Source: Candidatus Omnitrophota bacterium (lineage in GTDB: Bacteria > Omnitrophota > Gorgyraeia > Gygaellales > Profunditerraquicolaceae). Taken from it: 64,000 nucleotides of DNA. The notes under the pieces were generated by a model. That model ran no database searches. It saw nothing but the letters and a program-made list of their open reading frames with translations, and was not told the DNA's origin. The stretch lies in assembly GCA_028715785.1 (NCBI GenBank), contig JAQURC010000006.1, positions 21,630 through 85,629 on the forward strand, in the 5' to 3' direction. Made by a program: the position numbers and the translations under genes. This document shows positions 45,405 to 63,753 of this stretch, piece after piece. Each line of letters opens with the position of its first letter. Positions within the stretch are counted from its first letter, which is position 1.

Positions 45405-46073
45405 ATGCTAAGGCATTTAGATGAAGAATTAAAGGAACTGCACAAAGATATTTTGAAGATGGCGGTATTTGCCCAGGAGTCGATATTTAAATCTATCGAG
45501 TCGCTAAAGAACCGCGATAAAAACCTGGCTCAGGATGTAATCGATACTGATAATAAGATCGATGAACTGGAGTTGGCAATCGATGAAAAATGCATTGATC
45601 TTATTGCCCGTTATCAGCCGATGGCAGGAGATTTAAGGTATATTACCACCGGGATGAAGATAAATACGGAGCTGGAGCGGATTGCCGACATAGCATTAGA
45701 TATCTCGCAAAAATCATTAGCATTGATGGATAAGCCTTTACTTAAACCATTAGTGGATATTCCCAAGCTTTCCCAGGTGGCGCAGAATATGGTTAAGGAT
45801 GCCATTGACGCATTTGTCAAAAAGGATGCCCAGTTGGCCCGGCAGGTGGTTTTAGCGGATTGCGAAGCCGACAGGTTGCGTAACCTGGTTCAGGATGAGC
45901 TGGTTAATGAATATCTGGCGCGCGATCCTAAAACCGCGGAGCGGGCGGTGGCATTATTGCTTATTGCCCGGTATTTGGAGCGTATCTGCGACCACACTAC
46001 CAATATTGCCGAAGACGTAATTTATATGGTCGAGGCAAAAGTAGTCAAGCACCATCCCGAAGAATTGAAATAA
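45405..46073 (+). CDS. phoU: Phosphate signalling regulator PhoU (copy 2)
   Basis: LERIADIALDI and LERICDHTTNIAEDVIYMVEAKVVKHH. Close paralogue of 32830..33507. Confidence 0.95.
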   Translation: MLRHLDEELKELHKDILKMAVFAQESIFKSIESLKNRDKNLAQDVIDTDNKIDELELAIDEKCIDLIARYQPMAGDLRYITTGMKINTELERIADIALDISQKSLALMDKPLLKPLVDIPKLSQVAQNMVKDAIDAFVKKDAQLARQVVLADCEADRLRNLVQDELVNEYLARDPKTAERAVALLLIARYLERICDHTTNIAEDVIYMVEAKVVKHHPEELK

Positions 46074-46161: not shown

Positions 46162-46190
46162 TTGACCCCTCGTATTTAGTGGTATATAAT
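46162..46190 (+). promoter_or_regulatory. Sigma-70-type promoter upstream of the Lrp-aminotransferase pair
   Basis: TTGACC (46162-46167), 17-nt spacer, TATAAT (46185-46190). Confidence 0.5.
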
Positions 46191-46260: not shown

Positions 46261-46746
46261 ATGGATGAGATTCTAGAAATTTTAGAAAAAGACGGCCGGG
46301 CAAGCGTGGAAGATATCGCTAAAATGACCCGCAAGAATCCGGAGGATGTAAAAAAGGCGATCAAGAAATACGAAAAAGAGGGGGCAATTTTAAAATATAA
46401 GGCGGTAATCAATAAGGATTTGATTAAGGACAATGAATCCGAGGTCAGGGCTTTAATTGAGGTGAATATCATCCCCCAGAAGGACCTGGGTTTTGAGAAA
46501 ATTGCCGAGCGTATCTATTCATTCCCCGAGGTAACCAGTTGTTATTTAATCAGCGGAACATATGATTTATTGGTGGTTGTCGAGGGCAAGAACCTGCATA
46601 CGGTTTCCAACTTTGTGGCGGAGAAGCTTTCCTGTTTAGAGAATGTCCGCGGCACAGCCACCCATTTTTTATTGAAAAAGTATAAGGAAGACGGAGTAAT
46701 TTTGAAGCAGAAAGCGGAGAACAAAAGGATAGCCATATCCTATTAA
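46261..46746 (+). CDS. Lrp/AsnC-family transcriptional regulator
   Basis: HTH ILEKDGRASVEDIAKMTRKNPEDVKKAIKKYEKEG plus a RAM/ACT-like C-terminal domain. Confidence 0.85.
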   Translation: MDEILEILEKDGRASVEDIAKMTRKNPEDVKKAIKKYEKEGAILKYKAVINKDLIKDNESEVRALIEVNIIPQKDLGFEKIAERIYSFPEVTSCYLISGTYDLLVVVEGKNLHTVSNFVAEKLSCLENVRGTATHFLLKKYKEDGVILKQKAENKRIAISY

Positions 46747-47950: not shown

Positions 47951-48673
47951 ATGGCTGCTAAAAAAGACAATTTCCAGGTTTATGTAAAACAGATTGAGGC
48001 TATTTCAAAAGTGGCAAACCTGCTTACTTCCGGGATGTATTTGGAAGAGCTCCTGCGTTTAGTGGTGCAGGTTACCGCTGAAATTATGAACTCCAAAATT
48101 TCTTCTTTGATGCTGCTTGACCCGGAGAAAAAAGAGCTGGTGGTTAAAGCTACGCAGTCAATATCCGAGGCCTACAATAAAAAGCCTAATATCCGTTTAG
48201 GCGAAGGTATAGCCGGCATGGTTGCCCGGGAGAATAAGCCGATGTGTATCCTGGATGTTAAAAGCGATGCGCGCTATCTAAACCAGGATGTGGCTAAAAA
48301 AGAGGGCTTATGTTCTTTGGCTTGCGTGCCGTTGGCAGTCAAGGGAAGAGTCATCGGGGTACTCAACTGTTATACTTCTAAAAAGCACAAATTTTCTAAA
48401 CACGAATTGGATCTTTTGACGGCTCTGGCCAATCAGGCGGCCATTGCTATCGAAAACGCAGAGCTGGATTTACGCGTCCGCTCGGCAGAAGAGGCCCTGA
48501 CCATTCGTAAGCTGGTCGAGAGGGCAAAGGACATCCTTTCCCAGGAAGCAAACATTGCGCCTTCAGAAGCATACCGTTTGATCCAGAAGCAAAGTATGGA
48601 TATGCGAAAATCCATGCGCGAGGTGGCCGAGGCGATTATTCTGGCAAAAGATATAAGGACCAGGAAAAAATGA
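47951..48673 (+). CDS. GAF-ANTAR RNA-binding antiterminator-type regulator
   Basis: GAF domain ([17 protein letters not shown] ... VIGVLNCY) followed by ANTAR helices ([44 protein letters not shown]). Confidence 0.8.
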
Positions 48674-51062: not shown

Positions 51063-51134
51063 ATTTTAGTTGACAAATCCCTAAAATGTGTTAAACTTTA
51101 AATAGATTACAGCGTTGTAGTAAAAGACACAGAA

Positions 51135-51175
51135 GTCTTCTGGCAGGAAAGTTTGCCCAGAAGGCTTTTTTATTT
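51135..51175 (+). terminator. Intrinsic terminator after dedA
   Basis: GTCTTCTGGCA ... TGCCCAGAAGGC stem (one bulge, one G-U) followed by TTTTTTATTT. Confidence 0.6.
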
Positions 51176-51195
51176 GTCAGGACTAAGGCGTCCTT

Positions 51196-51241
51196 TGCCC
51201 ACCGGGGCACATCCGCGCAATACCTTATAAGCGCGGGGTGT
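51196..51241 (-). repeat. Family E element + satellite hairpin, copy 3 (inverted)
   Basis: TGCCC-accg-GGGCA, then ACATCCGCGCAATACCTTATAAGCGCGGGGTGT. This is the reverse complement of the copy 1 core. Confidence 0.8.
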
Positions 51242-51273
51242 ACCCATATGGGGCCAAAGGACGTTTTTGTTTT

Positions 51274-51319
51274 CCACCACCTGGTGGACATCCGCGCAAT
51301 ACCTATTAGCGCGGGGTGT
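51274..51319 (-). repeat. Family E element + satellite hairpin, copy 4 (inverted)
   Basis: CCACC-acct-GGTGG, then ACATCCGCGCAATACCTATTAGCGCGGGGTGT. Ends 16 nt before the sigma-factor start. Confidence 0.8.
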
Positions 51320-51334
51320 TATGAGGATTAAAAT

Positions 51335-51853
51335 ATGAGTTTTGAAGAGCTGCACCAGAAACTGTCGCCGACAATCAAGCGGATTGCCTATAAGCTAAAC
51401 GGGCGTTATCGCTCCTTTAACCATGACGACCTGTATCAGGAGGCATCAATCCACCTTTGGAGCAATTTTCTAAAAGGAAAGCTTAGCGATAAGACCGAAA
51501 GCTATATCCTGCAGGGGTGTTATTTTCATCTGAAAAATTATATCCGTAAGGTGAATGAACGCTCCAATGTTATCAGTATTGATGCTACGTTGAGCGCGGA
51601 TGGGGCAACTATAGAGGATGTGTTGGGGAAATATTGGTCTTCTCCGGATTGCCGGGGGCAATTGCATAATATATTTTTAGCGCGGAGTATCCAGAATAAT
51701 GGTTTCAACCTCAAAGAAAAAAAGCTGCTTGCCTATTTCAGCCAGGGCCTGACTACCAGAGAGATAGGCAAGCGTATGGGGATCTCTCACGTTAGCGTAG
51801 TAAAGCTGATGCAGAAGGTTAGAGCCAGGGCCCAAAAACATTTGGATAAATAA
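51335..51853 (+). CDS. Sigma-70-family (group 4/ECF-like) RNA polymerase sigma factor
   Basis: Region 2-like DDLYQEASIHLWSNF...YILQGCYFHLKNYIRK. Region 4 HTH LTTREIGKRMGISHVSVVKLMQKVRARAQ. 172 aa. Confidence 0.7.
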   Translation: MSFEELHQKLSPTIKRIAYKLNGRYRSFNHDDLYQEASIHLWSNFLKGKLSDKTESYILQGCYFHLKNYIRKVNERSNVISIDATLSADGATIEDVLGKYWSSPDCRGQLHNIFLARSIQNNGFNLKEKKLLAYFSQGLTTREIGKRMGISHVSVVKLMQKVRARAQKHLDK

Positions 51854-51920
51854 AAGAGATCCTTCGTTTGTAGATAAAAGCTTATTGTAGACTCAGGACA
51901 AATTTTGCTACGCAAAATTT

Positions 51921-51951
51921 GGTTACCAGATTTAAGCATTCTTTACTTGTA
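51921..51951 (+). promoter_or_regulatory. N-motif copy A: GGTTACCA-N12-CTTTACTTGTA
   Basis: One of three near-identical motifs (with 54591 and 56928). A perfect 10-bp inverted repeat CAAATTTTGC-tac-GCAAAATTTG (51899-51921) abuts it. Confidence 0.6.
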
Positions 51952-51988
51952 GTGACGTAAGGCACATTGAAGTGTAAGATTTAAACAT

Positions 51989-52020
51989 AGGCGTTCTATG
52001 AAAATAGAGCGCCTTTTTTA
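51989..52020 (+). terminator. Leader terminator/attenuator A
   Basis: AGGCGTTCTA-tgaaaa-TAGAGCGCCT (10 bp, one G-U) plus TTTTTTA. It ends 17 nt before the start at 52037, just upstream of the GGAAAGGAG RBS. Confidence 0.65.
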
Positions 52021-52036
52021 TTCGGAAAGGAGAATA

Positions 52037-52864
52037 ATGGCGAAACGAATTGGATTGATTTTTGCGGTTTTCTGCGTCTTTGTTTTATCAAATGCGTACG
52101 CAACTCCTTCAACGCACATCTGGGCTCCGTCAACGGATATCCAGCCTTATAAGAAAATCCACGTTACCTCGGATTTTTATTTTCCCACGACCGGCAAAGG
52201 CACCAACGCCGATAATTACGATCAGCATAATTATGTCCAGCAGGTATACGGCCTTACCTTTAGTTTATTATCGGATAAACCGGAAGAGAATCTTTTAGGC
52301 AAACTCTGGCAGCCGCTGGGAAAGATTATGGCGGAGACCGGTTTTGATTATAAAAAGGGGTTTGGTTCTTTCTATGATTCGACTCCCTGGTATTTTCATT
52401 TTAAGTTCGGCATCCCCGAAGGTTATTCAAAATTTACCTGCCCGTTAGGCAGCGCGGATATGCCCGCAATCGCCGCGGGTATGTATGACATGGGAACCAG
52501 AAGCCACCGGACGAATTATAACGTTGCTTATGTTAAGGCCGCAAAGACCGTTAATCTAGGCAAGGTTAATCTGGGAAGGTTTTCCGCCGGTTATTTTAAG
52601 GGAAATGGCAGGCTGCTTAGGGGCAGGGATGGTTTGCGGGATAACGCCGGGCCGATGTTTGCCTGGGAACGCACAATGTGCGAGATAAGCCCGAAGTTAT
52701 GGCTGTGCGTGGATTATCAGGGCACGCAATCATCTTACGGAGCGATTAATTACGGTTTTGCCTGGAGTTTTACGCCGGACATCTCGGCGATCCTTGCGTA
52801 TGATATTTATAATAACCGTAATTTAACCGACACTATTACGCTTCAATTGGATATTAATTTCTAA
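52037..52864 (+). CDS. Putative outer-membrane beta-barrel protein co-transcribed with amtB
   Basis: GGAAAGGAG RBS. Signal peptide MAKRIGLIFAVFCVFVLSNAYA. Beta-strand alternation. Terminal LQLDINF. The track start 51998 lies inside the terminator hairpin. Confidence 0.45.
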   Translation: MAKRIGLIFAVFCVFVLSNAYATPSTHIWAPSTDIQPYKKIHVTSDFYFPTTGKGTNADNYDQHNYVQQVYGLTFSLLSDKPEENLLGKLWQPLGKIMAETGFDYKKGFGSFYDSTPWYFHFKFGIPEGYSKFTCPLGSADMPAIAAGMYDMGTRSHRTNYNVAYVKAAKTVNLGKVNLGRFSAGYFKGNGRLLRGRDGLRDNAGPMFAWERTMCEISPKLWLCVDYQGTQSSYGAINYGFAWSFTPDISAILAYDIYNNRNLTDTITLQLDINF

Positions 52865-52879
52865 CAGAGGAGGAGCCAA

Positions 52880-54106
52880 ATGAATTCAGGCGATACAGCA
52901 TGGGTGTTAATCTCATCAGCCCTGGTTTTACTGATGACCCCCGGCCTTGCTTTTTTCTACGGAGGCATGGTGCGGCGAAAAAATGTTTTAAGCGTTTTGA
53001 TGCAGTGTTTTATTATTATGTGTGTCTTAAGCCTGCAATGGGTTTTGATTGGTTATAGCTTATCATTTCATCCGGGAAATGGGTTTTGGGGAGGTCTGCA
53101 ATGGCTGGGTTTAAACGGAGTGGGGTTGGAGCCTTACGCGGATTACGCCGGCACAATTCCGCATCAGGCGTTTATGATCTTTCAGGCGATGTTCGCCATA
53201 ATTACTCCGGCTTTGATTATCGGCGCGTTTGCCGAGAGGATGAAATTTTCCGCGTTTCTGATTTTTACTCTGCTTTGGGCAACTTTTGTTTATGATCCGT
53301 TATGCCATTGGGTTTGGGGAATGGGCGGATGGTTAAGGAATTTAGGGGCAATGGATTTTGCCGGAGGAACTGTCGTGCATATTAATGCCGGTATTGCCGC
53401 TCTTGTTACGGCAATAGTATTAGGCAGAAGAGGTAATTTAGAAAAAAATGTGCCTACTCCGCATAATATGCCTTTCGTGGTTTTGGGCACAGGGCTCTTA
53501 TGGTTTGGCTGGTTTGGTTTTAATGCCGGAAGCGCTTTGGCGGCAAATGGATTAGCGGTAAACGCCTTTGTCGTAACCAATACTGCCGCCGCGGCTGCGG
53601 GATTAAGCTGGGCGTTGATTGAATGGATACGCAATGGCAAACCCACAATTTTCGGCGTATGTTCCGGGGCGGTCGCCGGGTTAGTCGCGATTACTCCGGC
53701 AGCCGGGTTTGTGGGCGTGGTTGCGGCGATAATTATCGGTTTATTAGTCAGCGTGATTTGTTTTATCGCTGTAACTGTGATTAAGCCTCTGTTCGGTTAT
53801 GATGATTCTCTTGATGCCTTCGGCGTGCATTGCGTAGGAGGGATTTGGGGGGCCTTGGCTACCGGATTATTCGCTTCAAAATTAGTTAACCCTGCCGGAG
53901 CCGACGGATTATTTTTTGGCAACCCCAAACAATTCCTAACACAGCTTTTAGCCGTAGCCGTAACTATTGTTTATACGGCGGTTGTAACATTCGTAATTTA
54001 TAAATTAGTGGATATTTTTGTCGGGGTCAGGGTGGATGAAAAATCCGAAGCTATTGGCTTGGACCTTACGCAGCATCGCGAGAGAGCGTATACGATATTA
54101 GAATGA
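52880..54106 (+). CDS. amtB: Ammonium transporter AmtB
   Basis: DTAWVLISSALVLLMTPGLAFFYGGMVR, DFAGGTVVHINAG, FGWFGFNAGS, DDSLDAFGVHCVGGIWG. Confidence 0.95.
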   Translation: MNSGDTAWVLISSALVLLMTPGLAFFYGGMVRRKNVLSVLMQCFIIMCVLSLQWVLIGYSLSFHPGNGFWGGLQWLGLNGVGLEPYADYAGTIPHQAFMIFQAMFAIITPALIIGAFAERMKFSAFLIFTLLWATFVYDPLCHWVWGMGGWLRNLGAMDFAGGTVVHINAGIAALVTAIVLGRRGNLEKNVPTPHNMPFVVLGTGLLWFGWFGFNAGSALAANGLAVNAFVVTNTAAAAAGLSWALIEWIRNGKPTIFGVCSGAVAGLVAITPAAGFVGVVAAIIIGLLVSVICFIAVTVIKPLFGYDDSLDAFGVHCVGGIWGALATGLFASKLVNPAGADGLFFGNPKQFLTQLLAVAVTIVYTAVVTFVIYKLVDIFVGVRVDEKSEAIGLDLTQHRERAYTILE

Positions 54107-54113
54107 GAAACAT

Positions 54114-54168
54114 GGGGACGGTTCTATTTTTCCATAGCTAACCGTGTTCGAAAAATAGAACCGTCCCC
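54114..54168. repeat. Family D long hairpin, copy 2 (between amtB and glnB)
   Basis: GGGGACGGTTCTATTTTT-ccatagctaaccgtgttcg-AAAAATAGAACCGTCCCC is a perfect 18-bp stem. The loop starts CATAGC, as in copy 1. Confidence 0.85.
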
Positions 54169-54195
54169 AGGATTTTAAAAACTCGGGAGGTATAA

Positions 54196-54537
54196 ATGAA
54201 ATTAATTATTGCGATAATTCAACCCTATAAATTAGAAGAGGTAAAAGAAGAATTGTATAAAGCGGAAGTAAATCTAATTACGGTCAGTGAGGTTTTAGGC
54301 CACGGCCGCCAGAAGGGCCTGACCGAAGTTTACCGCGGCGCAAAGGAAACCGGAAATCTCCTGCGCAAAATCCGCCTTGAGATCGCGGTAAATGATAATT
54401 ATCTTGAGCCAACCATTAAAGCAATCGTCAAAGGTGCCAAAACCGGCGAAACCGGCGACGGAAAAATTTTTGTGCTGGATTTAAAAGAGTGTGTGCGTAT
54501 AAGGACTGAAGAGCGCGGAAGCTTGGCGATAGGATAG
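54196..54537 (+). CDS. glnB: PII nitrogen regulatory protein (GlnB/GlnK)
   Basis: 113 aa, collinear with E. coli GlnB. The T-loop reads [20 protein letters not shown] (position 49 = Ala, 51 = Glu). C-terminal GDGKIFV. Confidence 0.95.
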
Positions 54538-54545
54538 TAAAACAT

Positions 54546-54575
54546 GGGGGCTGTCCTCTTGAGAGGACCGTCCCC
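54546..54575. repeat. Family D-related short hairpin after glnB
   Basis: GGGGGCTGTCCTC-ttg-AGAGGACCGTCCCC. Shares the AACATGGGG prefix with 54109-54117. Confidence 0.6.
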
Positions 54576-54590
54576 TATTTTAAAAATTTA

Positions 54591-54621
54591 GGTTACCAAC
54601 GCTTTGTATTTCTTACTTGTA
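54591..54621 (+). promoter_or_regulatory. N-motif copy B: GGTTACCA-N12-TCTTACTTGTA
   Basis: Lies between the post-glnB hairpin (54546-54575) and leader terminator B. Confidence 0.6.
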
Positions 54622-54631
54622 ATTAGAGGAC

Positions 54632-54672
54632 GGGGGCGTTCTGGGGCCTTAAAGAATGCCTCTTTTATTTTA
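54632..54672 (+). terminator. Leader terminator/attenuator B
   Basis: GGCGTTCT-ggggccttaa-AGAATGCC (one G-U, extendable outward) followed by TCTTTTATTTT. 56 nt before the glnN start. Confidence 0.55.
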
Positions 54673-54727
54673 ACTTAATTGTGGTAAAATTAAACTTAAC
54701 GGAAGAATAGATAATCAGGAGGAAGGA

Positions 54728-56923
54728 ATGAGCATAAGACAGAAAGTTCTATTTAAAATTAAAAGCACCGAATTAGAAAAAATAGATTTTCCTAAAAAAG
54801 TTTCCTCTTATTTCGGCGTGAATACCTTTAGCACGGAAACTATGCAAAAGCATATTTCTAAAGGTACTTTTGAGGCATTCAAGACCTGGATGTCTGAAGG
54901 TAAAACCATAACTTTAGCGCAGGCAAACGAAATTGCCGATGCGATGAAGGAGTGGGCAATTGCCAAAGGCGCTACCTATTATACGCACTGGTTCCAGCCG
55001 ATGACCGGGCTTACCGCGGAAAAGCACGACAGCTTTATTTCGATAACCGCTCCGGGAAAAGTAATCGAAAAATTCTCGGGGAATAAATTAATCCAGGGGG
55101 AGCCGGATGCATCCAGCTTTCCTTCAGGAGGAATCCGGGCGACCTTTGAAGCCAGAGGTTATACTGCCTGGGATCCATCAAGTGCGGCGTTTATTATCGA
55201 AAGTACGCTTGGCAAAACTTTGTGTATCCCCACAATATTTATTTCTTACCACGGTGAAGCTTTAGACAAGAAGCTGCCGCTTTTGCGTTCGGATGAAGCG
55301 TTAAATAACGCCGCTTTAGGCCTGATTAAACTTTTCGGCCATAAAGATGTAAAAAAGATATTTTCTACCTGCGGTCCGGAGCAGGAATATTTCCTGATCG
55401 ATAAGAACTATTACAATTTACGCCAGGATTTGATCATGACCGGCCGGACCCTGGTTGGAGCGCCGTCTCCTAAAGGCCAGCAGTTAGAGGACCAGTATTT
55501 CGGCACGATTAAAGAGCGGGTGGTTAATTTTATGTTCGAGGTCGCTGAAGAGGCTTACAAGCTGGGCATACCGGTAATGACCCGGCACAATGAAGTTGCC
55601 CCGCATCAGTATGAATTTGCTCCGATATTCGAAGAATCAAATATCGCCGCCGATCACAATCAACTGCTTATGGAATTGATGAAAAAGATTGCCTTAAGGC
55701 ATGGGATGGTCTGCCTTTTGCATGAGAAACCTTTTGCCGGAATCAACGGCAGCGGAAAACACCTGAACTGGTCGCTGGCCGATGATAAAGGCAATAACCT
55801 GCTTAATCCCGGGCAGACTCCGGAGGATAACCTGCAGTTTTTGGCAGTTTTAGCCGCGGTATTAAGAGCGGTCTATCTGCACGCTGATCTCCTGCGTGCT
55901 TCGGTTGCCCTGGCTGGCAATGAACATCGCTTAGGCGCTAACGAGGCCCCTCCGGCCATTATCAGCGTATTTTTAGGCGAACAATTGACTTCGATCCTGG
56001 ACATGATTGAAAAAGGGGCTAAATCCAAAGTTTCTAAAAGCGACATTATCGATTTAGGGATAGGCCGCCTGCCCAAATTTAACAAGGATACAACCGATAG
56101 GAACCGCACCTCGCCTTTTGCCTTTACCGGGGCCAAATTTGAATTTCGCGCCGTCGGTTCATCGCAGAATATCTCCACACCCATCGCGGTAATCAATACC
56201 ATTATTGCTGAAAGCCTTGATTATGTTGCTGAGCAGATTAAAAAGGCCAAGTCCACGGGCAAGGATTTTAATTCCGCGGTATTGCTGGTAATCTCTAAGA
56301 TTGTTAAAGAGACCAAGGATATCCGCTTTGAAGGAAATAACTACGCGCAAGAGTGGATTAAAGAAGCTAAGAAACGGGGACTGCCGAACATCGCTTCGAC
56401 TTACCAGTCCCTGGAGGCTTTAACCAAAAAAGAGAATATCGCCCTTTTTGAGAAATACAAAGTCTTTTCTAAAGAAGAGCTGATCGCCCGTTACCATATC
56501 TGGATCCATATGTATAACCTGACCCTGGAAATCGAGGCCAATACCTTAAACGAAATGGTTAATGCTTCGGTAGTGCCGGCAGGTTATGAATATGAAAAAT
56601 TATTGGCGGCAAACCTGGACGCGTTAGTCAAATTACATAAAGACGCCAGCCTGAAAGTTGATAGCGGAGCGTTAAAAGACAAAAAGGATCATTTGGCTGA
56701 GATAGTTGCCAAGATTTATTATGTGCGCAGGAATGTCGGTGAAATGGTTAAGTTGCTTGAGGATGCCGGTAAACTAAACAACGAAAAACGCGCCGCGCTT
56801 TATTTTGATGAGCTTAAGCCTTTGATGGAGCATATTCGAAGGCACGTTGATCAGCTGGAATGCGTAGTTTCCGATGATGCCTGGGATCTGCCTAAGTATC
56901 GGGAAATGCTGTTCATAAAATAA
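54728..56923 (+). CDS. glnN: Glutamine synthetase type III
   Basis: 731 aa. GSIII-type N-terminus (FGVNTF...MKEWAIAKGATYYTHWFQPMTG) and catalytic core (NGSGKHLNWS, RTSPFAFTGAKFEFRAVGSS). Confidence 0.9.
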   Translation: MSIRQKVLFKIKSTELEKIDFPKKVSSYFGVNTFSTETMQKHISKGTFEAFKTWMSEGKTITLAQANEIADAMKEWAIAKGATYYTHWFQPMTGLTAEKHDSFISITAPGKVIEKFSGNKLIQGEPDASSFPSGGIRATFEARGYTAWDPSSAAFIIESTLGKTLCIPTIFISYHGEALDKKLPLLRSDEALNNAALGLIKLFGHKDVKKIFSTCGPEQEYFLIDKNYYNLRQDLIMTGRTLVGAPSPKGQQLEDQYFGTIKERVVNFMFEVAEEAYKLGIPVMTRHNEVAPHQYEFAPIFEESNIAADHNQLLMELMKKIALRHGMVCLLHEKPFAGINGSGKHLNWSLADDKGNNLLNPGQTPEDNLQFLAVLAAVLRAVYLHADLLRASVALAGNEHRLGANEAPPAIISVFLGEQLTSILDMIEKGAKSKVSKSDIIDLGIGRLPKFNKDTTDRNRTSPFAFTGAKFEFRAVGSSQNISTPIAVINTIIAESLDYVAEQIKKAKSTGKDFNSAVLLVISKIVKETKDIRFEGNNYAQEWIKEAKKRGLPNIASTYQSLEALTKKENIALFEKYKVFSKEELIARYHIWIHMYNLTLEIEANTLNEMVNASVVPAGYEYEKLLAANLDALVKLHKDASLKVDSGALKDKKDHLAEIVAKIYYVRRNVGEMVKLLEDAGKLNNEKRAALYFDELKPLMEHIRRHVDQLECVVSDDAWDLPKYREMLFIK

Positions 56924-56927
56924 AAAG

Positions 56928-56958
56928 GGTTACCAAAACAGCCCTTTTCTTACTTGTA
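56928..56958 (+). promoter_or_regulatory. N-motif copy C: GGTTACCA-N12-TCTTACTTGTA
   Basis: Begins 5 nt after the glnN stop. Followed by TATATA and leader terminator C. Confidence 0.6.
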
Positions 56959-57000
56959 TATATAGACACGCTGTTGTGTTTATCATAACGAATAGAACGT

Positions 57001-57052
57001 AGACGTTCATGCTGGCTAAAACTGTTTTTTGCCAAAATGAACGTCTTTTTTT
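57001..57052 (+). terminator. Leader terminator/attenuator C
   Basis: AGACGTTCAT...ATGAACGTCT (10-bp perfect outer stem, inner TGGC/GCCA) plus TTTTTTT. A competing small hairpin GAACG-taga-CGTTC (56995-57008) sequesters the 5' arm. Confidence 0.65.
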
Positions 57053-57084
57053 GTCAACAGCCATGCCTAAAGTTTGGGCATAAT

Positions 57085-57468
57085 ATGATTACTATAGTTA
57101 TTACCGAAGATGAAACAAAGGCAAAAGAGGCTTTGGCTAAGATGTTAAAGCAGGAGGGGTACACTTTATCCCCGGATACAAGCCGGGAAAATGTAATCCG
57201 CGTCGTGAAAAAGGATTGTATAAGGGACCTGGCTTTTATCAAAGACAGGGTAGTGGAATTAGAAAATTCATTGTTTATTGAAAAAAAGGGAGTATTGTAT
57301 AAATCCGTTTTGGAGGCAATCGAGAAACCTTTGCTTGAACAGACGCTAGAGCGTTGTGAAGGCAACCAGCTTAAAGCCGCCCGCATCCTGGGGATTAACC
57401 GCAACACCATGCGGGCCAAAATTAACAAATTAGGTATTGATGTTTCAAGGTGGAAAATAAATTTATGA
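57085..57468 (+). CDS. Small Fis/NtrC-type HTH protein (mini-NtrC: receiver-like N-terminal stub + HTH_8, no AAA+ domain)
   Basis: C-terminus KPLLEQTLERCEGNQLKAARILGINRNTMRAKINKLGI. N-terminus IVITEDETKAKEALAKMLKQEGYTL resembles receiver beta1-alpha1-beta2 only. ATGA coupling to gltB. The track start 57037 lies in the terminator. Confidence 0.65.
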   Translation: MITIVITEDETKAKEALAKMLKQEGYTLSPDTSRENVIRVVKKDCIRDLAFIKDRVVELENSLFIEKKGVLYKSVLEAIEKPLLEQTLERCEGNQLKAARILGINRNTMRAKINKLGIDVSRWKINL

Positions 57469-60400
57469 AACAGGCGCGTTTACCAAAAAAGCAGGGTCTA
57501 TACGACCCGCGGTTTGAGCATGATTCCTGCGGAGTAGGGTTTGTTTGCAATATCAAAGGCAAGAAAAGCCATGATATTGTTAAGCAGGGGCTGGAGGTTT
57601 TACGGCGCTTAAGCCACCGCGGAGCAACCGGCGCGGACCCTAAAACCGGTGACGGCGCGGGCCTGCTTATCCAGTTTCCTCATGAATTTTTTGTATCGAT
57701 ATGCGCGAAAGAAAAGATCAATCTGCCTAAAGAAGGTGAATATGCCTCAGGGTTAGTCTTCCTGCCGCAGGATGCCAAAGAGCGCAGGTTTTGTAAAGAG
57801 GCCTTTGAGAAAATAATTAATAGCGAAGGGCAGTTATTTTTGGGCTGGCGTAATGTACCGGTAGATAATTCTGATATCGGCCAGAGCGCCAAAGACACCC
57901 AGCCGGTGATCGAGCAGATATTTATTGGCGCTGCTGCGGTGTCATTGCGAGCCCCGAAGGGGCGAAGCAATCCAAAAGAGATTGCTTCGTCGCCTGCGGC
58001 TCCTGGCAATGACAATTTAGATAACCTGGCTTTTGAAAGAAAGCTTTATGTTATTCGTAGGCAGGTTGAAAATATTATCCGCGCCTCCAAAATAAAACAA
58101 AAAACATCTTTCTATATTCCCAGCTTGTCCGGCCGCACATTTATCTATAAGGGCCTGCTTATGCCGCATCAGGTAGAAAACTTCTTTTTGGATTTAAGTT
58201 CCCAGGAAATTAAAAGCGCTTTAGCCATGGTCCATTCGCGTTACTCTACCAATACTTTTCCCACCTGGGACCTCTCTCAACCGTTTAGATTTATCGCCCA
58301 TAACGGAGAGATCAATACTTTAAGGGGCAATATTAATTGGATGCGTGCCCGCCAAAACTTCTTAAAGAGCCAATTATTCGGCCAAGACTTAAAGAAAATA
58401 TTTCCGGTAATTGTTCCGGGCGGCAGTGATTCGGCGGCCATTGATAATGTTTTTGAGCTCCTGACCTTGTCCGGCAGAAGCCTGACGCAGGCAATCTCGA
58501 TGCTCATACCGGCTGCTTGGGAACAGAATAACCTGCTTACCCAGGAGGTAAGGGCTTTTCATAAATACCACACCTGTCTTATTGAGCCCTGGGACGGCCC
58601 GGCAGCCATGGTTTTTACTGACGGGATATCTATCGGAGCAGTGCTTGACCGTAACGGATTGCGGCCCTGCCGTTATATTGTTACCAAAGATGATTTTGTG
58701 GTGATGGCCTCCGAAGTAGGAGTTTTAGATATCGATCCTGCCAAGATCCTTCATTCAGGACGGCTTGAGCCGGGCAAGGCATTTTTTATCGATACCAAAG
58801 CCGGGTGCATAATTGAAGACAGCCGGATAAAAAAAGAGCTCAGCGAAGATAAGCCATACGATCAATGGGTTAAGAAGAATATACTGGAGTTAGACAGTTT
58901 AAAAGACAGAGGACAGAAGACAGAAGATAGAGGACAGAGGAGAGAAACAAATATTTTGACCCAATTAAAGGTTTTTGGTTATACCCGCGAAGATCTGAAA
59001 ATGATTATTAAGCCGATGGCTGAAAATGCCCAGGAACCGGTGGGCTCGATGGGCAATGATACCCCGCACGCCGTACTTTCAACCAGGCCGCAACTCTTGT
59101 TTTCCTATTTTAAACAATTATTCGCCCAGGTAACTAACCCTCCGATTGATCCTATCCGTGAGGAGCTGGTGATGAGCCTGGCCAGTTATTTGGGCCCGGA
59201 AAAGAATATTTTAAGCGATGGAGAGGACCACTGCCATAAATTATTAGTAAAACAGCCGATTTTAAACGACGCGGAATTAAAGAAAATCAGAAAAATTAGA
59301 ACAAGCGGATTTAGGACTAAAACAATCTCCATAAATTTTAAGATTTCCGAAAAGGACGCCTTCAAAAGGACATTGGAGAGAATACGTAAAGAGGCAGAGC
59401 AGGCGATATCCGCCAAAGGCGGATCCCTGCCTGTCCGGCAGGCAGGCGCCTCCGGCGGAAAAAAAGGCTATACTTTTATTATTTTAAGCGACCGCGGAGT
59501 GAATAAAGATTATGCCGCTATTCCCAGCCTCCTGGCGGTTTCAGCGCTGCACCATTATCTGGTGCGCCGTTCTTTGCGCACGCAGATCAGCATTATTTTA
59601 GAGAGCGCCGAGCCCCGCGAAGTAAATCATTTTGCCCTGCTTTTTGCCTACGGAGTTGATTGTGTTAATCCGTATCTTGTATTTGGCGCCTTGGAAAAGA
59701 TGGCTAAAGAGAAAGAATTGAACCTTGGCGCCGAGAAGGCAAAGCATAATTACATAAAAGCCATCGACAAAGGGATACTCAAAGTCCTTTCCAAGATGGG
59801 CATCTCGACTTTACAGAGTTACCGCGGGGCCCAGATTTTTGAAGCGGTGGGATTAAATAAAAGCGTAATTGATGAATATTTCACCGGCACAGTTTCCCGG
59901 ATTAACGGCGCATCTTTAGGGGTAATTGTTAAAGAAACTATTCTGCGCCATAAGGAGGCTTTTGCCGTAAGGAGCCAAGGCGAAAATCATCTGGCTTCCG
60001 GCGGCCTTTATCAGTGGAGGCGCGACGGAGAATTCCATCTCTGGAACCCGGACACGATTGCCGCTTTGCAGGATGCCGCGCGCAATAATGATGCCAAAAA
60101 ATATCAGGAGTTTGCCAGCTTAATTAATGATCAGTCAAAAAATCCGACTACTCTAAGAAGCCTGCTAAAATTTAAAATACAAAAATCTATCCCGCTAAGT
60201 GAAGTTGAGCCGGTTGAAGAAATTGTAAAAAGGTTTGCTACCGGGGCGATGAGTTTTGGCTCAATCAGCCGCGCCACGCATGAAACGATTGCTATCGCCA
60301 TGAATAGGTTAGGTGGAAGGTCTAATACTGGAGAGGGCGGCGAAGACCCCGCGCGTTTTGTTCCGTTGCCTGGCGGAGATTCTGCCAGAAGCGCGATAAA

Positions 60401-62132
60401 GCAGGTTGCCTCCGGGCGTTTCGGCGTAACCACGAATTATTTAGTTAATGCCGATGAAATCCAGATAAAAATGGCCCAAGGCGCAAAACCCGGCGAGGGC
60501 GGCCAGCTTCCCGGGCATAAGGTAAGCGCGATAATCGCCAAGACCCGCTATACTACCCCGGGAGTTACTTTGATTTCCCCGCCTCCGCACCATGATATAT
60601 ATTCAATCGAAGATTTAGCGCAGCTTATCTTTGACCTAAAAAACGCAAATCCCAAAGCGCGGATTAGCGTAAAATTAGTTTCTGAAATCGGCGTAGGCAC
60701 GGTAGCCGCGGGTGTGGCTAAAGGGCATGCCGATATGATCCTTATTTCCGGCCAGGACGGAGGCACCGGAGCTTCTCCTTTGAGTTCAATTAAACACGCC
60801 GGACTTCCCTGGGAGCTGGGGCTTTCCGAAACGCACCAGACTTTAGTCTTAAATGATTTAAGGAGCAGGGTGCGCCTGCAGAGTGACGGCCAGATGCGCA
60901 CCGGACGGGATGTGGCGATTGCCGCAATGCTTGGCGCCGAAGAGTTCGGTTTCTGCACCGCGGTATTAATCGTGTTGGGATGCGTGATGCTGCGTCATTG
61001 TAATTTAAATAATTGTTCGGTAGGGATTGCTACCCAAGATGAGATCCTGGAAAAAAGATTTACCGGCCGGCCGGAATATATTATTAATTATTTTACCTTT
61101 ATCGCCGATGAACTGCGCCAGATCATGAGCTCTTTAGGCATAAAAAAATTAGAGGATATGGTCGGCAGGGTGGATCTGCTGGAATTGAATCAGGAGATTT
61201 TACCCTGGAAGGCAAAAGAAATCGATTTTTCTAAAATCCTTTATAAACCTCAGGTGCCGGAGTCAGTAATTACGCATTATTGTAAAAAACAGGACCATGG
61301 TATTGATAAGATTCTGGATTTAAAGTTGATTGAATTATCCGAGCCGGCATTGGCAGAAGCTAAAAACGTGGAAATAAATCAAAAGATCGAAAACGTAAAC
61401 CGCGCCACCGGGGCAATGTTAAGCGGGGAGGTTTGCCGGCGGTTTGGCGAAAGCGGGCTGCCCGAAGATACGATTAAATGTAATTTTAAAGGGGTGGCCG
61501 GCCAAAGCTTCGGGGCTTTTTTGGCCAAAGGGATAACTTTTGCCCTGGAAGGCATGGCTAATGATTATGTGGGCAAAGGGATATCCGGAGGTAAAATTAT
61601 AATTTATCCGGATAAAAAAGTTGATTACAAACCGGATGAAAATATTATTATCGGCAACACTACTTTCTACGGGGCAATCAACGGAGAGGCATATATACGG
61701 GGGGTTGCCGGAGAGAGGTTCTGTATCCGGAATTCCGGGTTAAATGCGGTTATTGAGGGTTTGGGAGACCACGGTTGTGAATATATGACCGGAGGAAGGG
61801 TGGTTGTCCTGGGAAAATGCGGCAGGAATTTCGGGGCAGGGATGTCCGGGGGGATTGCCTATTGTCTGGATGAAAGAAGAGATTTTAAGAAAAAATGTAA
61901 TTTGGAGATGGTGGCTTTGGAGAAAATAAATGCCCAAGACGCAGAGACGATCAAAAACCTGCTGTTTAACCACCGCAAATACACGCAAAGCTTTAAAGCC
62001 AAAGAGATTCTCGATGATTTTCATAAGTATGCCAATCTTTTTGTCAAAGTCATGCCTTTGGAATACAAACGTATATTGGAAGAAAAAAAGGCTGTTGGGA
62101 AGGCTGACCTGGGAGAATATACTGATGGGTGA
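57465..62132 (+). CDS. gltB: Glutamate synthase large subunit
   Basis: Ntn Cys (HDSCGVGFV), GEINTL, the FMN/Fe-S central and synthase domains (GEGGEDP, KMAQGAKPGEGGQLPG, SGQDGGTGASP) and the C-terminal GXGXG domain. Contains three in-frame repeat-like insertions. Confidence 0.95.
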   Translation: MKQARLPKKQGLYDPRFEHDSCGVGFVCNIKGKKSHDIVKQGLEVLRRLSHRGATGADPKTGDGAGLLIQFPHEFFVSICAKEKINLPKEGEYASGLVFLPQDAKERRFCKEAFEKIINSEGQLFLGWRNVPVDNSDIGQSAKDTQPVIEQIFIGAAAVSLRAPKGRSNPKEIASSPAAPGNDNLDNLAFERKLYVIRRQVENIIRASKIKQKTSFYIPSLSGRTFIYKGLLMPHQVENFFLDLSSQEIKSALAMVHSRYSTNTFPTWDLSQPFRFIAHNGEINTLRGNINWMRARQNFLKSQLFGQDLKKIFPVIVPGGSDSAAIDNVFELLTLSGRSLTQAISMLIPAAWEQNNLLTQEVRAFHKYHTCLIEPWDGPAAMVFTDGISIGAVLDRNGLRPCRYIVTKDDFVVMASEVGVLDIDPAKILHSGRLEPGKAFFIDTKAGCIIEDSRIKKELSEDKPYDQWVKKNILELDSLKDRGQKTEDRGQRRETNILTQLKVFGYTREDLKMIIKPMAENAQEPVGSMGNDTPHAVLSTRPQLLFSYFKQLFAQVTNPPIDPIREELVMSLASYLGPEKNILSDGEDHCHKLLVKQPILNDAELKKIRKIRTSGFRTKTISINFKISEKDAFKRTLERIRKEAEQAISAKGGSLPVRQAGASGGKKGYTFIILSDRGVNKDYAAIPSLLAVSALHHYLVRRSLRTQISIILESAEPREVNHFALLFAYGVDCVNPYLVFGALEKMAKEKELNLGAEKAKHNYIKAIDKGILKVLSKMGISTLQSYRGAQIFEAVGLNKSVIDEYFTGTVSRINGASLGVIVKETILRHKEAFAVRSQGENHLASGGLYQWRRDGEFHLWNPDTIAALQDAARNNDAKKYQEFASLINDQSKNPTTLRSLLKFKIQKSIPLSEVEPVEEIVKRFATGAMSFGSISRATHETIAIAMNRLGGRSNTGEGGEDPARFVPLPGGDSARSAIKQVASGRFGVTTNYLVNADEIQIKMAQGAKPGEGGQLPGHKVSAIIAKTRYTTPGVTLISPPPHHDIYSIEDLAQLIFDLKNANPKARISVKLVSEIGVGTVAAGVAKGHADMILISGQDGGTGASPLSSIKHAGLPWELGLSETHQTLVLNDLRSRVRLQSDGQMRTGRDVAIAAMLGAEEFGFCTAVLIVLGCVMLRHCNLNNCSVGIATQDEILEKRFTGRPEYIINYFTFIADELRQIMSSLGIKKLEDMVGRVDLLELNQEILPWKAKEIDFSKILYKPQVPESVITHYCKKQDHGIDKILDLKLIELSEPALAEAKNVEINQKIENVNRATGAMLSGEVCRRFGESGLPEDTIKCNFKGVAGQSFGAFLAKGITFALEGMANDYVGKGISGGKIIIYPDKKVDYKPDENIIIGNTTFYGAINGEAYIRGVAGERFCIRNSGLNAVIEGLGDHGCEYMTGGRVVVLGKCGRNFGAGMSGGIAYCLDERRDFKKKCNLEMVALEKINAQDAETIKNLLFNHRKYTQSFKAKEILDDFHKYANLFVKVMPLEYKRILEEKKAVGKADLGEYTDG
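57939..58014. repeat. Family B, copy 4, in frame inside gltB
   Basis: GTGTCATTGCGAGCCCCGAAGGGGCGAAGCAATCCAAAAGAGATTGCTTCGTCGCCTGCGGCTCCTGGCAATGACA. Translated as VSLRAPKGRSNPKEIASSPAAPGND. Confidence 0.85.
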
Positions 62133-63567
62133 TCCAAAAGGATTCTTAAAAGTTAAAAGACAGCCCGGGACATACCGTCTGGTTTGCGAAAGAATAAAAG
62201 ATTTCGCCGAAGTTAATTTATTGCGGACTGAATTTCAAAACAAGGAGCAGGCATCGCGCTGTATGGATTGCGGCACGCCTTTTTGCCACTCCGGCTGCCC
62301 CATCGGTAATTATATACCGGAATGGAATGACCTTGTTTTTGCCGGCCAGTGGGAAAAGGCCTTTAGTTTACTTAACGCCACCAATAACCTTCCGGAAATT
62401 ACCGGAAGGATTTGCCCTGCGCTTTGTGAATATGCCTGTGTTTTGGGGATCAATGATGACCCGGTAACGATTCGGGAAAACGAATTGAGTATTATCGAGT
62501 ATGCCTTTAAGAATGATTTAATCCAGCCGCGAATTTTAAGCAAGAGGACAGGAAAAAAAATAGCCGTAGTCGGTTCCGGGCCGGCAGGCCTGGCCTGCGC
62601 CGACCAGCTGAATTGCGCCGGGCATAAGGTTGTGGTTTTTGAAAGGGATGATGCCATTGGAGGAATTTTGCGTTATGGGATCCCCGAGTTTAAGCTGGAG
62701 AAGAAAATAATCGACCGCCGGATAAAGATCCTGCAAAAGGAAGGGATAAAATTTAAAACGAATGTTGATGTAGGCGCGGATTTATCCGCGCGAAAATTGT
62801 TGCGGGAGTTTGACGCGGTTTGTATTGCCTGCGGGTCGCGGCAGCCGCGGGACCTGCATATTGAGGGCAGAAACCTTTCCGGCATCCATTTTGCCATGGA
62901 TTATTTGATTCAATCCAATAAAAGGATAAAAGGAGAGAGGATACCGGATGATTTATTGATTGACGCAAAGGATAAGCGCGTAGCGGTGATCGGCGGAGGA
63001 GATACCGGAGCAGATTGCGTGGGAGTGGCGCATCGGCAAGGCGCATCCTGCGTTACGCAGATCGAGATTATGCCTAAACCCGCCTCCTGCCGCACTAAAG
63101 ATTACCCCTGGCCAAAGTATCCTTTATTGCTTAAATCTTCGACCAGCCATGAAGAAGGCGGACAAAGAGATTGGTCAATATTAACCAAAAAATTTACCGG
63201 CTCAAGCGGAAAGGTAAAAAAACTTTCCTGCGCAAGGGTGGAGTTTAAAAAAGATGCCGCGGGGTGCCCGGTCATGCAGGAAGTAAGGGATTCGGAGTTT
63301 GAAATCGAAACCGACCTGGTGATTCTGGCTTTGGGTTTTTTGCACCCTGAGAAAAAAGGGATAATCGAGGAACTCAGATTGGATTTGGATCAAAAGGGAA
63401 ATGTAAAAACAAGCGATAATTTTATGACTTCTAACGAAGGCCTGTTTGCCTGTGGAGATATGCGCCGCGGCCAATCCCTGATTGTCTGGGCAATTGCCGA
63501 AGGCAGGCGCGCTGCCCACTATATCGACAAATACCTTATGGGTGATTCAATCCTGCCGGTGTTATAA
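62125..63567 (+). CDS. gltD: Glutamate synthase small subunit (NADPH-dependent)
   Basis: Met at 62125 (8-nt overlap with gltB). [50 protein letters not shown]. Confidence 0.95.
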
Positions 63568-63674
63568 AATTCGTAACAGTTCAACTCTTGGAAGCGCTCC
63601 GACAAGATTGTAGGGCAGGTTTAAACCTGCCCTACGACGATCTCCTTCTGAAAGCTGAACTGTTACTAAAATTC
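63565..63674. mobile_element. 94-bp MITE-like element carrying a family A hairpin, flanked by an 8-bp direct repeat
   Basis: Terminal inverted repeats GTAACAGTTCA (63573-63583) and TGAACTGTTAC (63656-63666). Central GTAGGGCAGGTTTAAACCTGCCCTAC (63610-63635). Direct repeats TAAAATTC at 63565-63572 and 63667-63674; the left one contains the gltD stop codon. Confidence 0.65.
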
Positions 63675-63753
63675 AAGCTTTTTTACTAATTTTAAGTTAC
63701 AATATTAAGAAAAAGACAAGGAGAGAGGTTTGTATTTATTAGAGTTTTTAATC

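Follow-up and report, generated by a model that had tools for sequence, protein, structure and literature searches.

How is nitrogen assimilation controlled in the Omnitrophota, a phylum of widespread, uncultivated, and often ultra-small bacteria about whose gene regulation, to our knowledge, nothing is known? This question is raised by a 64,000-nucleotide (nt) stretch of a Candidatus Omnitrophota bacterium genome (contig JAQURC010000006.1; here, the window, with positions counted from its first letter). In it, a preliminary description had recognized a 31-nt motif and a leader terminator ahead of each of three nitrogen assimilation transcription units and had proposed that they form a dedicated nitrogen regulon in which a special promoter or operator is joined with conditional antitermination. 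Our analysis points to a two-layer nitrogen switch as the probable explanation. The motif would be a promoter read by a small sigma factor encoded next to it, the leaders would be ANTAR-type attenuators, and the sigma gene would itself be gated by such attenuators, forming a cascade.

A pattern scan of the window for GGTTACCA-N12-YYTTACTTGTA returned the three copies that had been found by eye, at 51921-51951 (copy A), 54591-54621 (copy B), and 56928-56958 (copy C), all on the + strand and without a mismatch, and no fourth match in the window even when two mismatches were allowed. The chance expectation for the 31-nt motif in the window is 0.01, three matches were reached in 0 of 100 shuffles, and neither half of the motif, GGTTACCA or TTACTTGTA, has another + strand occurrence there. 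All three copies are intergenic, and a terminator scan together with RNA folding placed a stable stem-loop with a U-run downstream of each, as had been described. Unbiased copies from loci selected for the sigma gene (see below) give a core of GTTACCA-N13/14-TACTTGTA; the first G of the pattern is not conserved in these copies. Two further candidates were set aside: a degenerate, two-mismatch motif-like site 3' of gltD (TGTTACTA-N12-TTTTACTA, 63661-63688), which has no attenuator downstream and is probably unrelated, and a GGTTAC-N16-TTACTT match at 9146, which lies within a coding region and lacks the flanking bases.

The genes behind the three copies, all on the + strand, were checked against Pfam and NCBIfam, and the identities first given to AmtB, PII, the type III glutamine synthetase, GltB, and GltD were confirmed by one or the other. 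Copy A is the predicted alternative-sigma promoter of a unit (52037-54537) encoding an outer membrane protein (OMP)-like protein (52037-52864), amtB (52880-54106), and glnB (54196-54537), a gene order that recurs in other loci. Copy B is the corresponding candidate for glnN, encoding the type III glutamine synthetase (54728-56923; Pfam GSIII_N, 249 bits), and copy C for a unit (57085-63567) comprising the gene of a mini-protein (57085-57468), gltB (57450-62132), and the gltD open reading frame (ORF; 61930-63567), where the mini helix-turn-helix protein noted earlier was confirmed as a Fis-type HTH_8 protein. Copy C overlaps a hairpin 3' of glnN, AAAAGGG...CCCTTTT (56923-56948), such that the end of one unit and the predicted promoter of the next share 26 nt.

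To follow the motif across genomes, we scanned one genome per species for the exact pattern. It was present in at least 119 stretches, mostly from Omnitrophota metagenome-assembled genomes (MAGs); the motif-selected figures given here and below are those among the matches listed. Roughly 17 chance matches are expected in the scanned collection by our own arithmetic, and a few matches, within coding regions of Flavobacterium, Rothia, and Eubacteriales, look like chance. When the first ORF downstream of each of 135 motif sites was taken and clustered, ~90% of the classifiable genes were nitrogen genes or porins of amtB clusters. The largest group was glutamine synthetase of type III or type I (44 sites), followed by three porin/OMP families, one of which is Pfam BBP2 (29 sites), and amtB (19 sites). 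PII or PII fused to an amino acid permease accounted for 7 sites, the HTH_8 mini-protein heading gltBD for 6, a conserved protein of 86 to 107 amino acids (aa) for 6, a glutamine amidotransferase (GATase) for 3, a GAF-ANTAR protein for 2 (in two genomes), and NifH and the hybrid-cluster protein for 1 each. We also checked for frequent occurrence of the motif away from nitrogen genes, with a negative result; the proposed dedicated nitrogen regulon is conserved across the phylum, with the motif ahead of nitrogen genes.

What would read such a motif? The most likely reader is the sigma-70-family factor encoded at 51335-51853 (+ strand), immediately upstream of copy A, which had been put forward as a candidate regulator on position. 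Its 172-aa product passes the NCBIfam model TIGR02937 (sigma70-ECF, for extracytoplasmic function) over its full length, with 50.1 bits against a cutoff of 42.9; its C-terminal part matches the sigma4 domain of FliA/SigF in the Protein Data Bank (E = 5e-9); and its length is that of factors with sigma2 and sigma4 domains only (~170 to 200 aa). An identical protein is annotated in a Candidatus Omnitrophica MAG. Homologues number at least 985, and among the best 120, all organism-named ones are from Omnitrophica/Omnitrophota except one labeled "bacterium." The predicted DNA-contact segments (DKTDSYILQGCYFHLKNYIRK and GLTTREIG..GISHV.VVK) are nearly invariant at 34 to 83% overall identity.

A sigma homologue is present in 46 of the 119 motif-selected loci, typically ending a few nucleotides before the motif. 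As a check on bias, we retrieved 80 metagenomic loci by alignment to the sigma protein alone, 76 of which have at least 120 nt after the gene. In all 76 of these the sigma stop codon is directly followed by the motif, with three or fewer mismatches in 73 and with the spacer shifted by one nucleotide in the remaining 3.

The motif also looks like a promoter in its own right. Profiling 98 distinct sites, we found the flank from -6 to -2 to be A-rich, a T-run before TACTTGTA, an uninformative spacer, and, at 87 of the sites, a purine at position +6 after the motif. The first leader hairpin (P1, described below) starts at least 6 nt from the motif, with a mode of 10 nt, in a model-based placement; an initial placement by the longest hexaloop stem, which had put some P1 hairpins at 0 to 5 nt, was discarded. 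In leaders that have only the second hairpin (P2), it starts 5 to 8 nt after the motif. Housekeeping promoters of this lineage take the form TTGAC-N14-TGnTAnAAT, and a TTGAC with an extended -10 element lies within -90 to +8 of just 1 of the 98 motif sites, compared with 54 of 64 leaders of sigma genes. A housekeeping sigma-70 reading of the motif itself was rejected, as its -10 block has no TAnnnT and the housekeeping promoters of the lineage differ; a sigma-54/NtrC-type reading (-24 GG and -12 GC, 10 nt apart) was likewise rejected, since its -12 element would fall within that uninformative spacer. These features agree with the special promoter suggested earlier, although its -35/-10 register, GGTTAC-N16-TTACTT, is one possibility only: TTACCA-N17-CTTGTA suits a purine at +6 equally well. 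Finally, two Omnitrophota-type loci have a c-di-AMP riboswitch (Rfam RF00379; L019, 4919-5070, - strand, 72 bits; L104, 7776-7954, + strand, 70 bits) after the motif in place of an ANTAR leader, which marks the motif as a separable module. We infer that the motif is neither an RNA element nor a simple operator but a promoter unusable by the housekeeping sigma factor.

The best-surviving alternative, which we nevertheless consider unlikely, is that the motif serves as operator to a DNA-binding protein, either the HTH_8 mini-protein or the Lrp/AsnC-family regulator encoded at 46261-46746 (Pfam), with the sigma factor unrelated or one input of several. The motif does contain imperfect palindromes (GGTnACC and TACnnGTA), its halves share TTAC 20 bp apart, and it is longer and more invariant than most promoters; moreover, an HTH_8 gene occurs in 35 of the 119 motif loci, and Lrp/AsnC heads the gene string that contains GAF-ANTAR. 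An operator would still need a core promoter, however, and the near absence of housekeeping-type promoters around the motif sites leaves it without one. The A-rich flank, the blocks ~17 bp apart, and the downstream purine fit a promoter by themselves, and P1 stems never start closer than 6 nt. The sigma gene, with its adjacency in every one of the 76 loci, also differs from HTH_8 and Lrp, which are not consistently nearby.

Much less probable again is that the motif is transcribed as part of the regulatory RNA, for example as an extra protein-binding element 5' of P1, with the promoter farther upstream. Its constant position immediately 5' of the leader would fit, and P2-only leaders such as that of copy B might find in it a substitute for P1. 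Against this, the N12 spacer varies without a pairing pattern and the conserved blocks are not complementary; in many loci ~1 nt separates the sigma stop codon from the motif, which starts 4 nt past the protein match and leaves no room for a noncoding promoter; it also precedes an unrelated RNA, the c-di-AMP riboswitch; and copy C overlaps the post-glnN hairpin.

If the motif is a promoter for the alternative sigma factor, what regulates the transcripts that start there? In the 130 nt after each motif site we found a recurring layout consisting of a first hairpin (P1; e.g., GCAC-AUUGUA-GUGC), a short linker, a second hairpin (P2; e.g., GAAC-AGAGGC-GUUC), and a terminator whose 5' arm starts with the GGCGUUC of the second hairpin. 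Targets of ANTAR proteins are defined by two stem-loops of at least 3 bp with hexaloops carrying A at position 1 (A1) and G at position 4 (G4), a linker of 2 to 25 nt, and competition of hairpin 2 with a terminator (PMC3369931, PMC8164766). Such targets are known ahead of PII, amtB, glutamine synthetase, glutamate synthase (GOGAT), and nif genes in other phyla (PMC3369931).

Because Rfam gave no ANTAR-target match, we built our own covariance model from 23 compact leaders. In the motif-selected loci it gave 94 matches, of which 80 have the motif at most 200 nt upstream and 4 more overlap it; in the sigma-selected loci, 95 of 96 matches share the strand of the sigma gene. In the P1 stem, 98.8% of cells are paired in the motif-selected set and 97.5% in the independent sigma-selected set, with changes on both sides at three of the four pairs; of the P2 pairs, the inner three are mostly formed. 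Compensatory cells number 52 in the motif-selected set (20.6 ± 3.3 in shuffles) and 36 in the sigma-selected set (13.9 ± 2.7), values reached in 0 of 500 shuffles in either case, although such counts lean toward structure because the alignments were fitted to the model. The number of pairs changing on both sides is not above shuffles, having been reached in 147 and 154 of 500. The loop is six nucleotides long in 75 of 94 matches for hairpin 1 and in 87 of 94 for hairpin 2; A1 is found in 55 of the 75 and 67 of the 87 hexaloops, respectively, and G4 in 73 of 75 and 85 of 87. Linkers range from 2 to 20 nt in the model alignment. The leaders thus fit ANTAR-type attenuators, a class already known, in which an ANTAR protein would bind the hairpins and allow read-through. 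Conserved antiterminator hairpins of a protein-dependent type, captured by the P1/P2 model and its hexaloop signature, support the conditional antitermination that had been proposed; the preliminary description had recognized the terminator and antiterminator, while the upstream P1 hairpin and the hexaloop signature had escaped it.

Run over the window with filters off, the model scored highest in the 64 kb at four places: leader A, itself among the seed sequences (39.8 bits), leader C (15.6), a site in front of the sigma gene (51106-51139; 13.0), and leader B (12.2). Rfam at gathering thresholds gave no match in the window, the glutamine riboswitch included, and a permissive Rfam scan of leader A returned sub-threshold chance matches only (e.g., Moco and trpB). 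By its sequence, leader A (51962-52022, + strand) is a textbook ANTAR-type case, with P1 GCAC-AUUGAA-GUGU at 51962-51975, P2 AAC-AUAGGC-GUU at 51984-51995, and a terminator at 51989-52022, for which the terminator scan gave 51989-52014 plus a T-run and RNA folding the extension to 52022. Leader C (56966-57053, + strand) has P1 ACAC-GCUGUU-GUGU at 56966-56979, P2 GAAC-GUAGAC-GUUC at 56995-57008, which is the competing hairpin noted earlier as GAACG-taga-CGTTC, and a terminator at 57002-57053. Leader B (54628-54671, + strand) is P2-only, with GGAC-GGGGGC-GUUC at 54628-54641 and a terminator at 54633-54671, a layout shared by the orthologous glnN leaders of L029, L034, L077, L099, L100, and L110. 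The linker between P1 and P2 measures 8 nt (leader A), 15 nt (leader C), or 4 nt (sigma leader), and the loops of leader A (AUUGAA and AUAGGC) and of the sigma leader (AGCGUU and ACAGAA) carry A1 and G4. Leaders A and C and the sigma leader have the sequence features of ANTAR targets; B lacks the pair of hairpins.

In each leader the hairpin and the terminator compete for the same RNA. The 3' half of P2 (GNCGUUC, noted earlier as GNCGTTC and indeed common to the terminator 5' arms) is also the 5' arm of the terminator, and the two structures are therefore mutually exclusive; they overlap at 51989-51995 in leader A, 54633-54641 in B, 57002-57008 in C, and 51132-51138 in the sigma leader. Folding gave -20.6 kcal/mol for the terminator and -2.9 for P1 plus P2 in leader A, -26.5 and -5.9 in leader C, -22.5 and -3.3 in the first attenuator of the sigma leader, and, for the single antiterminator hairpin of leader B, -15.7 and -2.1. 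The terminators are favored by 13 to 21 kcal/mol, and all three leaders and both attenuators of the sigma leader end in 4 to 7 U. With the terminator so much more stable than P1 plus P2, termination would be the default and read-through would need a protein clamp. From terminator to start codon there are ~15 to 17 nt in A (ATG 52037), 56 nt in B (ATG 54728), and ~32 nt in C (ATG 57085), in keeping with the 17 to 56 nt first estimated. That no promoter fits into this interval, as had been argued, is true of A and does not hold for B (see below).

It is very unlikely, and the weakest of the alternatives, that these hairpins are ordinary terminators or a dispersed repeat without conditional read-through, their likeness to ANTAR targets being coincidental or due to another RNA-binding factor: P2 stems of 3 to 4 bp, a G at loop position 1 in ~20%, and modest covariation, with both-side-changing pairs no more numerous than in shuffles, are set against G4 in 97 to 98% of loops, a P1 almost always paired and bearing compensatory changes, the strand bias of the sigma-selected matches, orthologous positions ahead of nitrogen genes across the phylum, a syntenic ANTAR gene, and the leader A terminator, which at ~15 nt before the start codon would kill the operon if it were unconditional.

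Attenuators of the kind found ahead of its predicted targets appear to gate the sigma gene too, a feature that was overlooked when the gene was first named as a candidate regulator. A housekeeping-type promoter lies at 51070-51097 (+ strand; TTGACA and TAAACT 16 nt apart, the latter preceded by TG; a promoter scan gave 10 of 12 matches in addition to the TG). It is followed on the same strand by attenuator 1 (51107-51175), with P1 UUAC-AGCGUU-GUAG at 51107-51120, P2 AGAC-ACAGAA-GUCU at 51125-51138, and a terminator at 51132-51175, and by attenuator 2 (51180-51273), in which a P2-like hairpin, GGAC-UAAGGC-GUCC (51180-51193), overlaps a second long terminator (51187-51273). Among 64 distinct sigma-selected loci, the attenuator hairpin signature is present in 57, the TTGAC plus extended -10 promoter in 54, and GGAC-NNNGRY-GUC upstream of the sigma gene in 45; the 31-nt motif is upstream of the sigma gene in none. 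Given the housekeeping promoter of the sigma leaders and the absence of the motif from all 64, the sigma factor would not be autoregulated. The sigma leader of the window also holds two copies of a 32-nt hairpin-forming element, ACAUCCGCGCAAUACCU..A.GCGCGGGGUGU, one (51209-51241) in the loop of terminator 2 and the other (51288-51319) immediately before the ribosome-binding site of the sigma gene; this latter copy is found again in L136 and L166.

Which protein might act on the attenuators? A GAF-ANTAR protein (47951-48673, + strand; 240 aa), ~3 kb upstream, had been named as a candidate regulator, and we regard it as the candidate antiterminator and nitrogen status sensor. Pfam identifies both domains (GAF_2, 90.3 bits; ANTAR, 58.3 bits); similarity is to NifA, Nlh1, and PtsP for the GAF domain and to Rv1626 and NasR for the ANTAR domain. 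Homologues occur in the same cluster of other genomes; in 13 of the 32 sigma-selected loci of at least 6 kb, the sigma gene comes directly after one, in addition to the two genomes in which GAF-ANTAR itself lies behind the motif.

Taken together, these features suggest the following mechanism. In the first layer, the sigma factor at 51335-51853 would read GTTACCA-N13/14-TACTTGTA, with transcription starting at the purine ~6 nt after the motif. In the second, a very stable intrinsic terminator would form by default in each transcript, and the weak hairpins P1 and P2, with their A1/G4 hexaloops and with P2 excluding the terminator, would be clamped together by a protein, letting P2 persist and RNA polymerase read through. 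The clamping protein is presumably the GAF-ANTAR protein, acting as a dimer; the likeness of its GAF domain to those of NifA and PtsP suggests, speculatively, 2-oxoglutarate, glutamine, or PII as the signal. Production of the sigma factor would have to be released by the antiterminator first, and each sigma-dependent transcript after that; the architecture is visible in the leaders, and its logic would be that of a coherent feed-forward AND gate. For glnN, a constitutive-looking promoter downstream of the attenuator would provide basal expression.

Several observations do not sit easily with this switch. On the side of the sigma factor, the Pfam models Sigma70_r2 (22.9) and r4 (17.4) fall below their cutoffs, and the AlphaFold model is poor (predicted local distance difference test score, 56.8; shallow alignment). 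The link between sigma factor and motif rests on adjacency and could reflect conserved gene order in the nitrogen cluster alone; the motif is almost invariant, leaving no room for covariation with the sigma factor. The motif is also unlike a typical ECF promoter, as GTTACCA and TACTTGTA offer neither the -35 AAC nor the -10 CGT, and the sigma gene does not show the positive autoregulation of most ECF sigma genes. No cotranscribed anti-sigma gene was found in the window or in the sigma-selected loci, where the next gene is a porin/OMP gene or amtB behind the motif; an anti-sigma partner is not universal among ECF groups. On the side of the attenuators, covariation was counted on model-fitted alignments, a bias noted above; leader B and its orthologues fall outside the two-hairpin definition of ANTAR targets; and both loops of leader C have G rather than A at position 1 while keeping G4, and each of them could therefore close to a tetraloop. 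Moreover, many porin, PII, and nifH leaders carry a tandem second attenuator, in which a P2-like AGAC-GNNGGC-GUCUU overlaps a second terminator (L005, 1670-1850; also L020, L028, L038, L045, L072, L081, L085, L087, L103, and L119), and these have no P1, offering a single hairpin to a dimeric ANTAR protein.

A more far-reaching form of the two-layer switch is one that we hold tentatively, at a little under an even chance. In this form, the Omnitrophota would manage without the classical logic of NtrBC/sigma-54, NtcA, or GlnR, and a single metabolite-sensing GAF-ANTAR protein would act twice, first at the attenuation of the sigma gene and then on all transcripts that the sigma factor starts from GTTACCA-N13/14-TACTTGTA, a noncanonical promoter with hardly any variation. 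The result would be a feed-forward AND gate over the whole regulon, including nif genes in some lineages, that is built on an undescribed sigma/promoter pair.

How does this compare with known systems? ANTAR antiterminators include EutV of eut, NasR of nasF, and AmiR of ami, and nitrogen regulons under ANTAR control have been predicted in Desulfotomaculum and Pelobacter (PMC3369931). The Omnitrophota leaders share with these dual-hexaloop systems the two A1/G4 hexaloop hairpins, the short linker, the overlap of hairpin 2 with the terminator, a nearby ANTAR gene, and nitrogen targets. They differ in that the sensor is a GAF domain rather than REC, NIT, or an AmiC partner, and in the uncultivated phylum, the tandem P2-only attenuators, the P2-only glnN leaders, and the one fixed promoter; the ANTAR literature that we examined contains no characterized GAF-ANTAR nitrogen regulator. 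A parallel in layering is Geobacter sulfurreducens, where GnfL/GnfM and GnfK/GnfR join a sigma-54 promoter (-24 GG/-12 GC), served by the enhancer-binding GnfM, to an ANTAR response regulator (PMC2995071). There, too, an alternative-sigma promoter is combined with a leader terminator overridden by an ANTAR protein, in hierarchical layers (PMC2995071). Here, the promoter is not of the sigma-54 type and its likely reader is a small ECF-like sigma factor. The order is apparently reversed as well: in Geobacter the transcriptional layer induces the ANTAR layer, whereas here ANTAR-type attenuators appear to gate the sigma gene.

Klebsiella nasF likewise has two locks, an NtrC/sigma-54 promoter and NasR antitermination, which answer to separate signals, nitrogen limitation and nitrate (reviewed in PMC12591593). 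It resembles the present case in placing an alternative-sigma promoter before an ANTAR leader, but it is a single operon with two signals, whereas here a whole regulon would share both locks and possibly a single sensor. Some ECF sigma factors of group 4, such as HrpL, are controlled through their own transcription and not by an anti-sigma factor. The sigma factor described here is similarly small, with sigma2 and sigma4 only, a dedicated regulon, a conserved promoter, and no adjacent anti-sigma gene. It departs from HrpL-type factors in that its promoter lacks the AAC/CGT signature, it is not autoregulated, and its synthesis is apparently under transcription attenuation.

A literature search for the motif and for ANTAR or ECF control of nitrogen genes in Omnitrophota found no description. 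What appears to be new is the promoter, its likely ECF-like reader without anti-sigma factor or autoregulation, the GAF sensor, the attenuated sigma gene, and the conservation across the phylum. What is already established is the antitermination mechanism and the pairing of an alternative sigma factor with ANTAR control on nitrogen genes (PMC2995071, PMC12591593). Of the schemes from which the preliminary description had set this one apart (NtrC/sigma-54, NtcA, GlnR/TnrA, and the glutamine riboswitch), the tests for sigma-54 and for Rfam riboswitches were negative; the antitermination half belongs to the known ANTAR targets. The locus offers a concrete wiring diagram, with a defined promoter, a 172-aa sigma factor, a 240-aa RNA-binding sensor, and RNA targets of ~35 nt, parts that are small enough to be rebuilt in vitro or in E. 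coli. The motif and hairpin signature could serve as an annotation tool for nitrogen-regulated genes in MAGs, reaching unannotated porins, the 86-aa family, and the PII-fused permease. Should the sigma-promoter pair prove true, it would provide an orthogonal sigma/promoter set and a new ECF-like group gated by attenuation instead of an anti-sigma factor.

Several members of the regulon deserve mention in their own right. In L085 (from 3003), L001, and the pair L063 and L087, the promoter-plus-attenuator module precedes nifH (Fer4_NifH, 428 bits) and genes for the hybrid-cluster (prismane) protein and for an amino acid permease with a C-terminal PII domain. The 86- to 107-aa protein, which has no Pfam match, stands directly behind the motif in L080 (from ~4570), L031, L007, L016, L096, and L117; in MAGs labeled Syntrophaceae or delta proteobacterium its leader differs, reading CCGCGUGACGUGUAUGGCGCGCGG with no P2. 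The motif thus also occurs in genomes labeled as something other than Omnitrophota (labels taken as given). Behind the c-di-AMP riboswitch of L019 lies a P-type cation ATPase fused to a PTS-Ntr-like EIIA domain, while L104 ends before the gene; the combination of motif and riboswitch suggests that the transport of cations or potassium may be tied to nitrogen status.

The glnN leader has an additional feature. An extended -10 element, TGTGGTAAAAT (54680-54690, + strand), stands 58 nt after the motif, in the interval from the terminator to the start codon. The pattern T[AG]TGnTAnnnT is present 57 to 60 nt after the motif in 9 of 25 glnN leaders, that of the window included, and the same element is found farther off in three more (102 nt in L113, ~100 nt in L101, and ~220 nt in L060). 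It is probable from this that glnN has a second, constitutive promoter after the terminator besides the regulated promoter with its attenuator. Dual promoters are also a feature of glnA in enteric bacteria, which this arrangement resembles.

The OMP-like protein at 52037-52864 has no Pfam or NCBIfam match. Its family lies behind the motif in 10 loci, at 46 to 84% identity and usually ahead of amtB, and it is possibly an ammonium-related outer membrane channel. The mechanical ORF list starts the gene at ATG 51998, inside the terminator stem; ATG 52037, which is preceded by GGAAAGGAG, is the more likely start.

The GAF-ANTAR gene belongs to a string headed by a putative housekeeping-type promoter, TTGACC-N14-TGGTATATAAT (46162-46190, + strand), as read from the sequence. 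The string consists of the Lrp/AsnC gene, an aminotransferase gene, GAF-ANTAR, nadE, and a DedA gene, and a PhoU gene lies just upstream of it, at 45405-46073.

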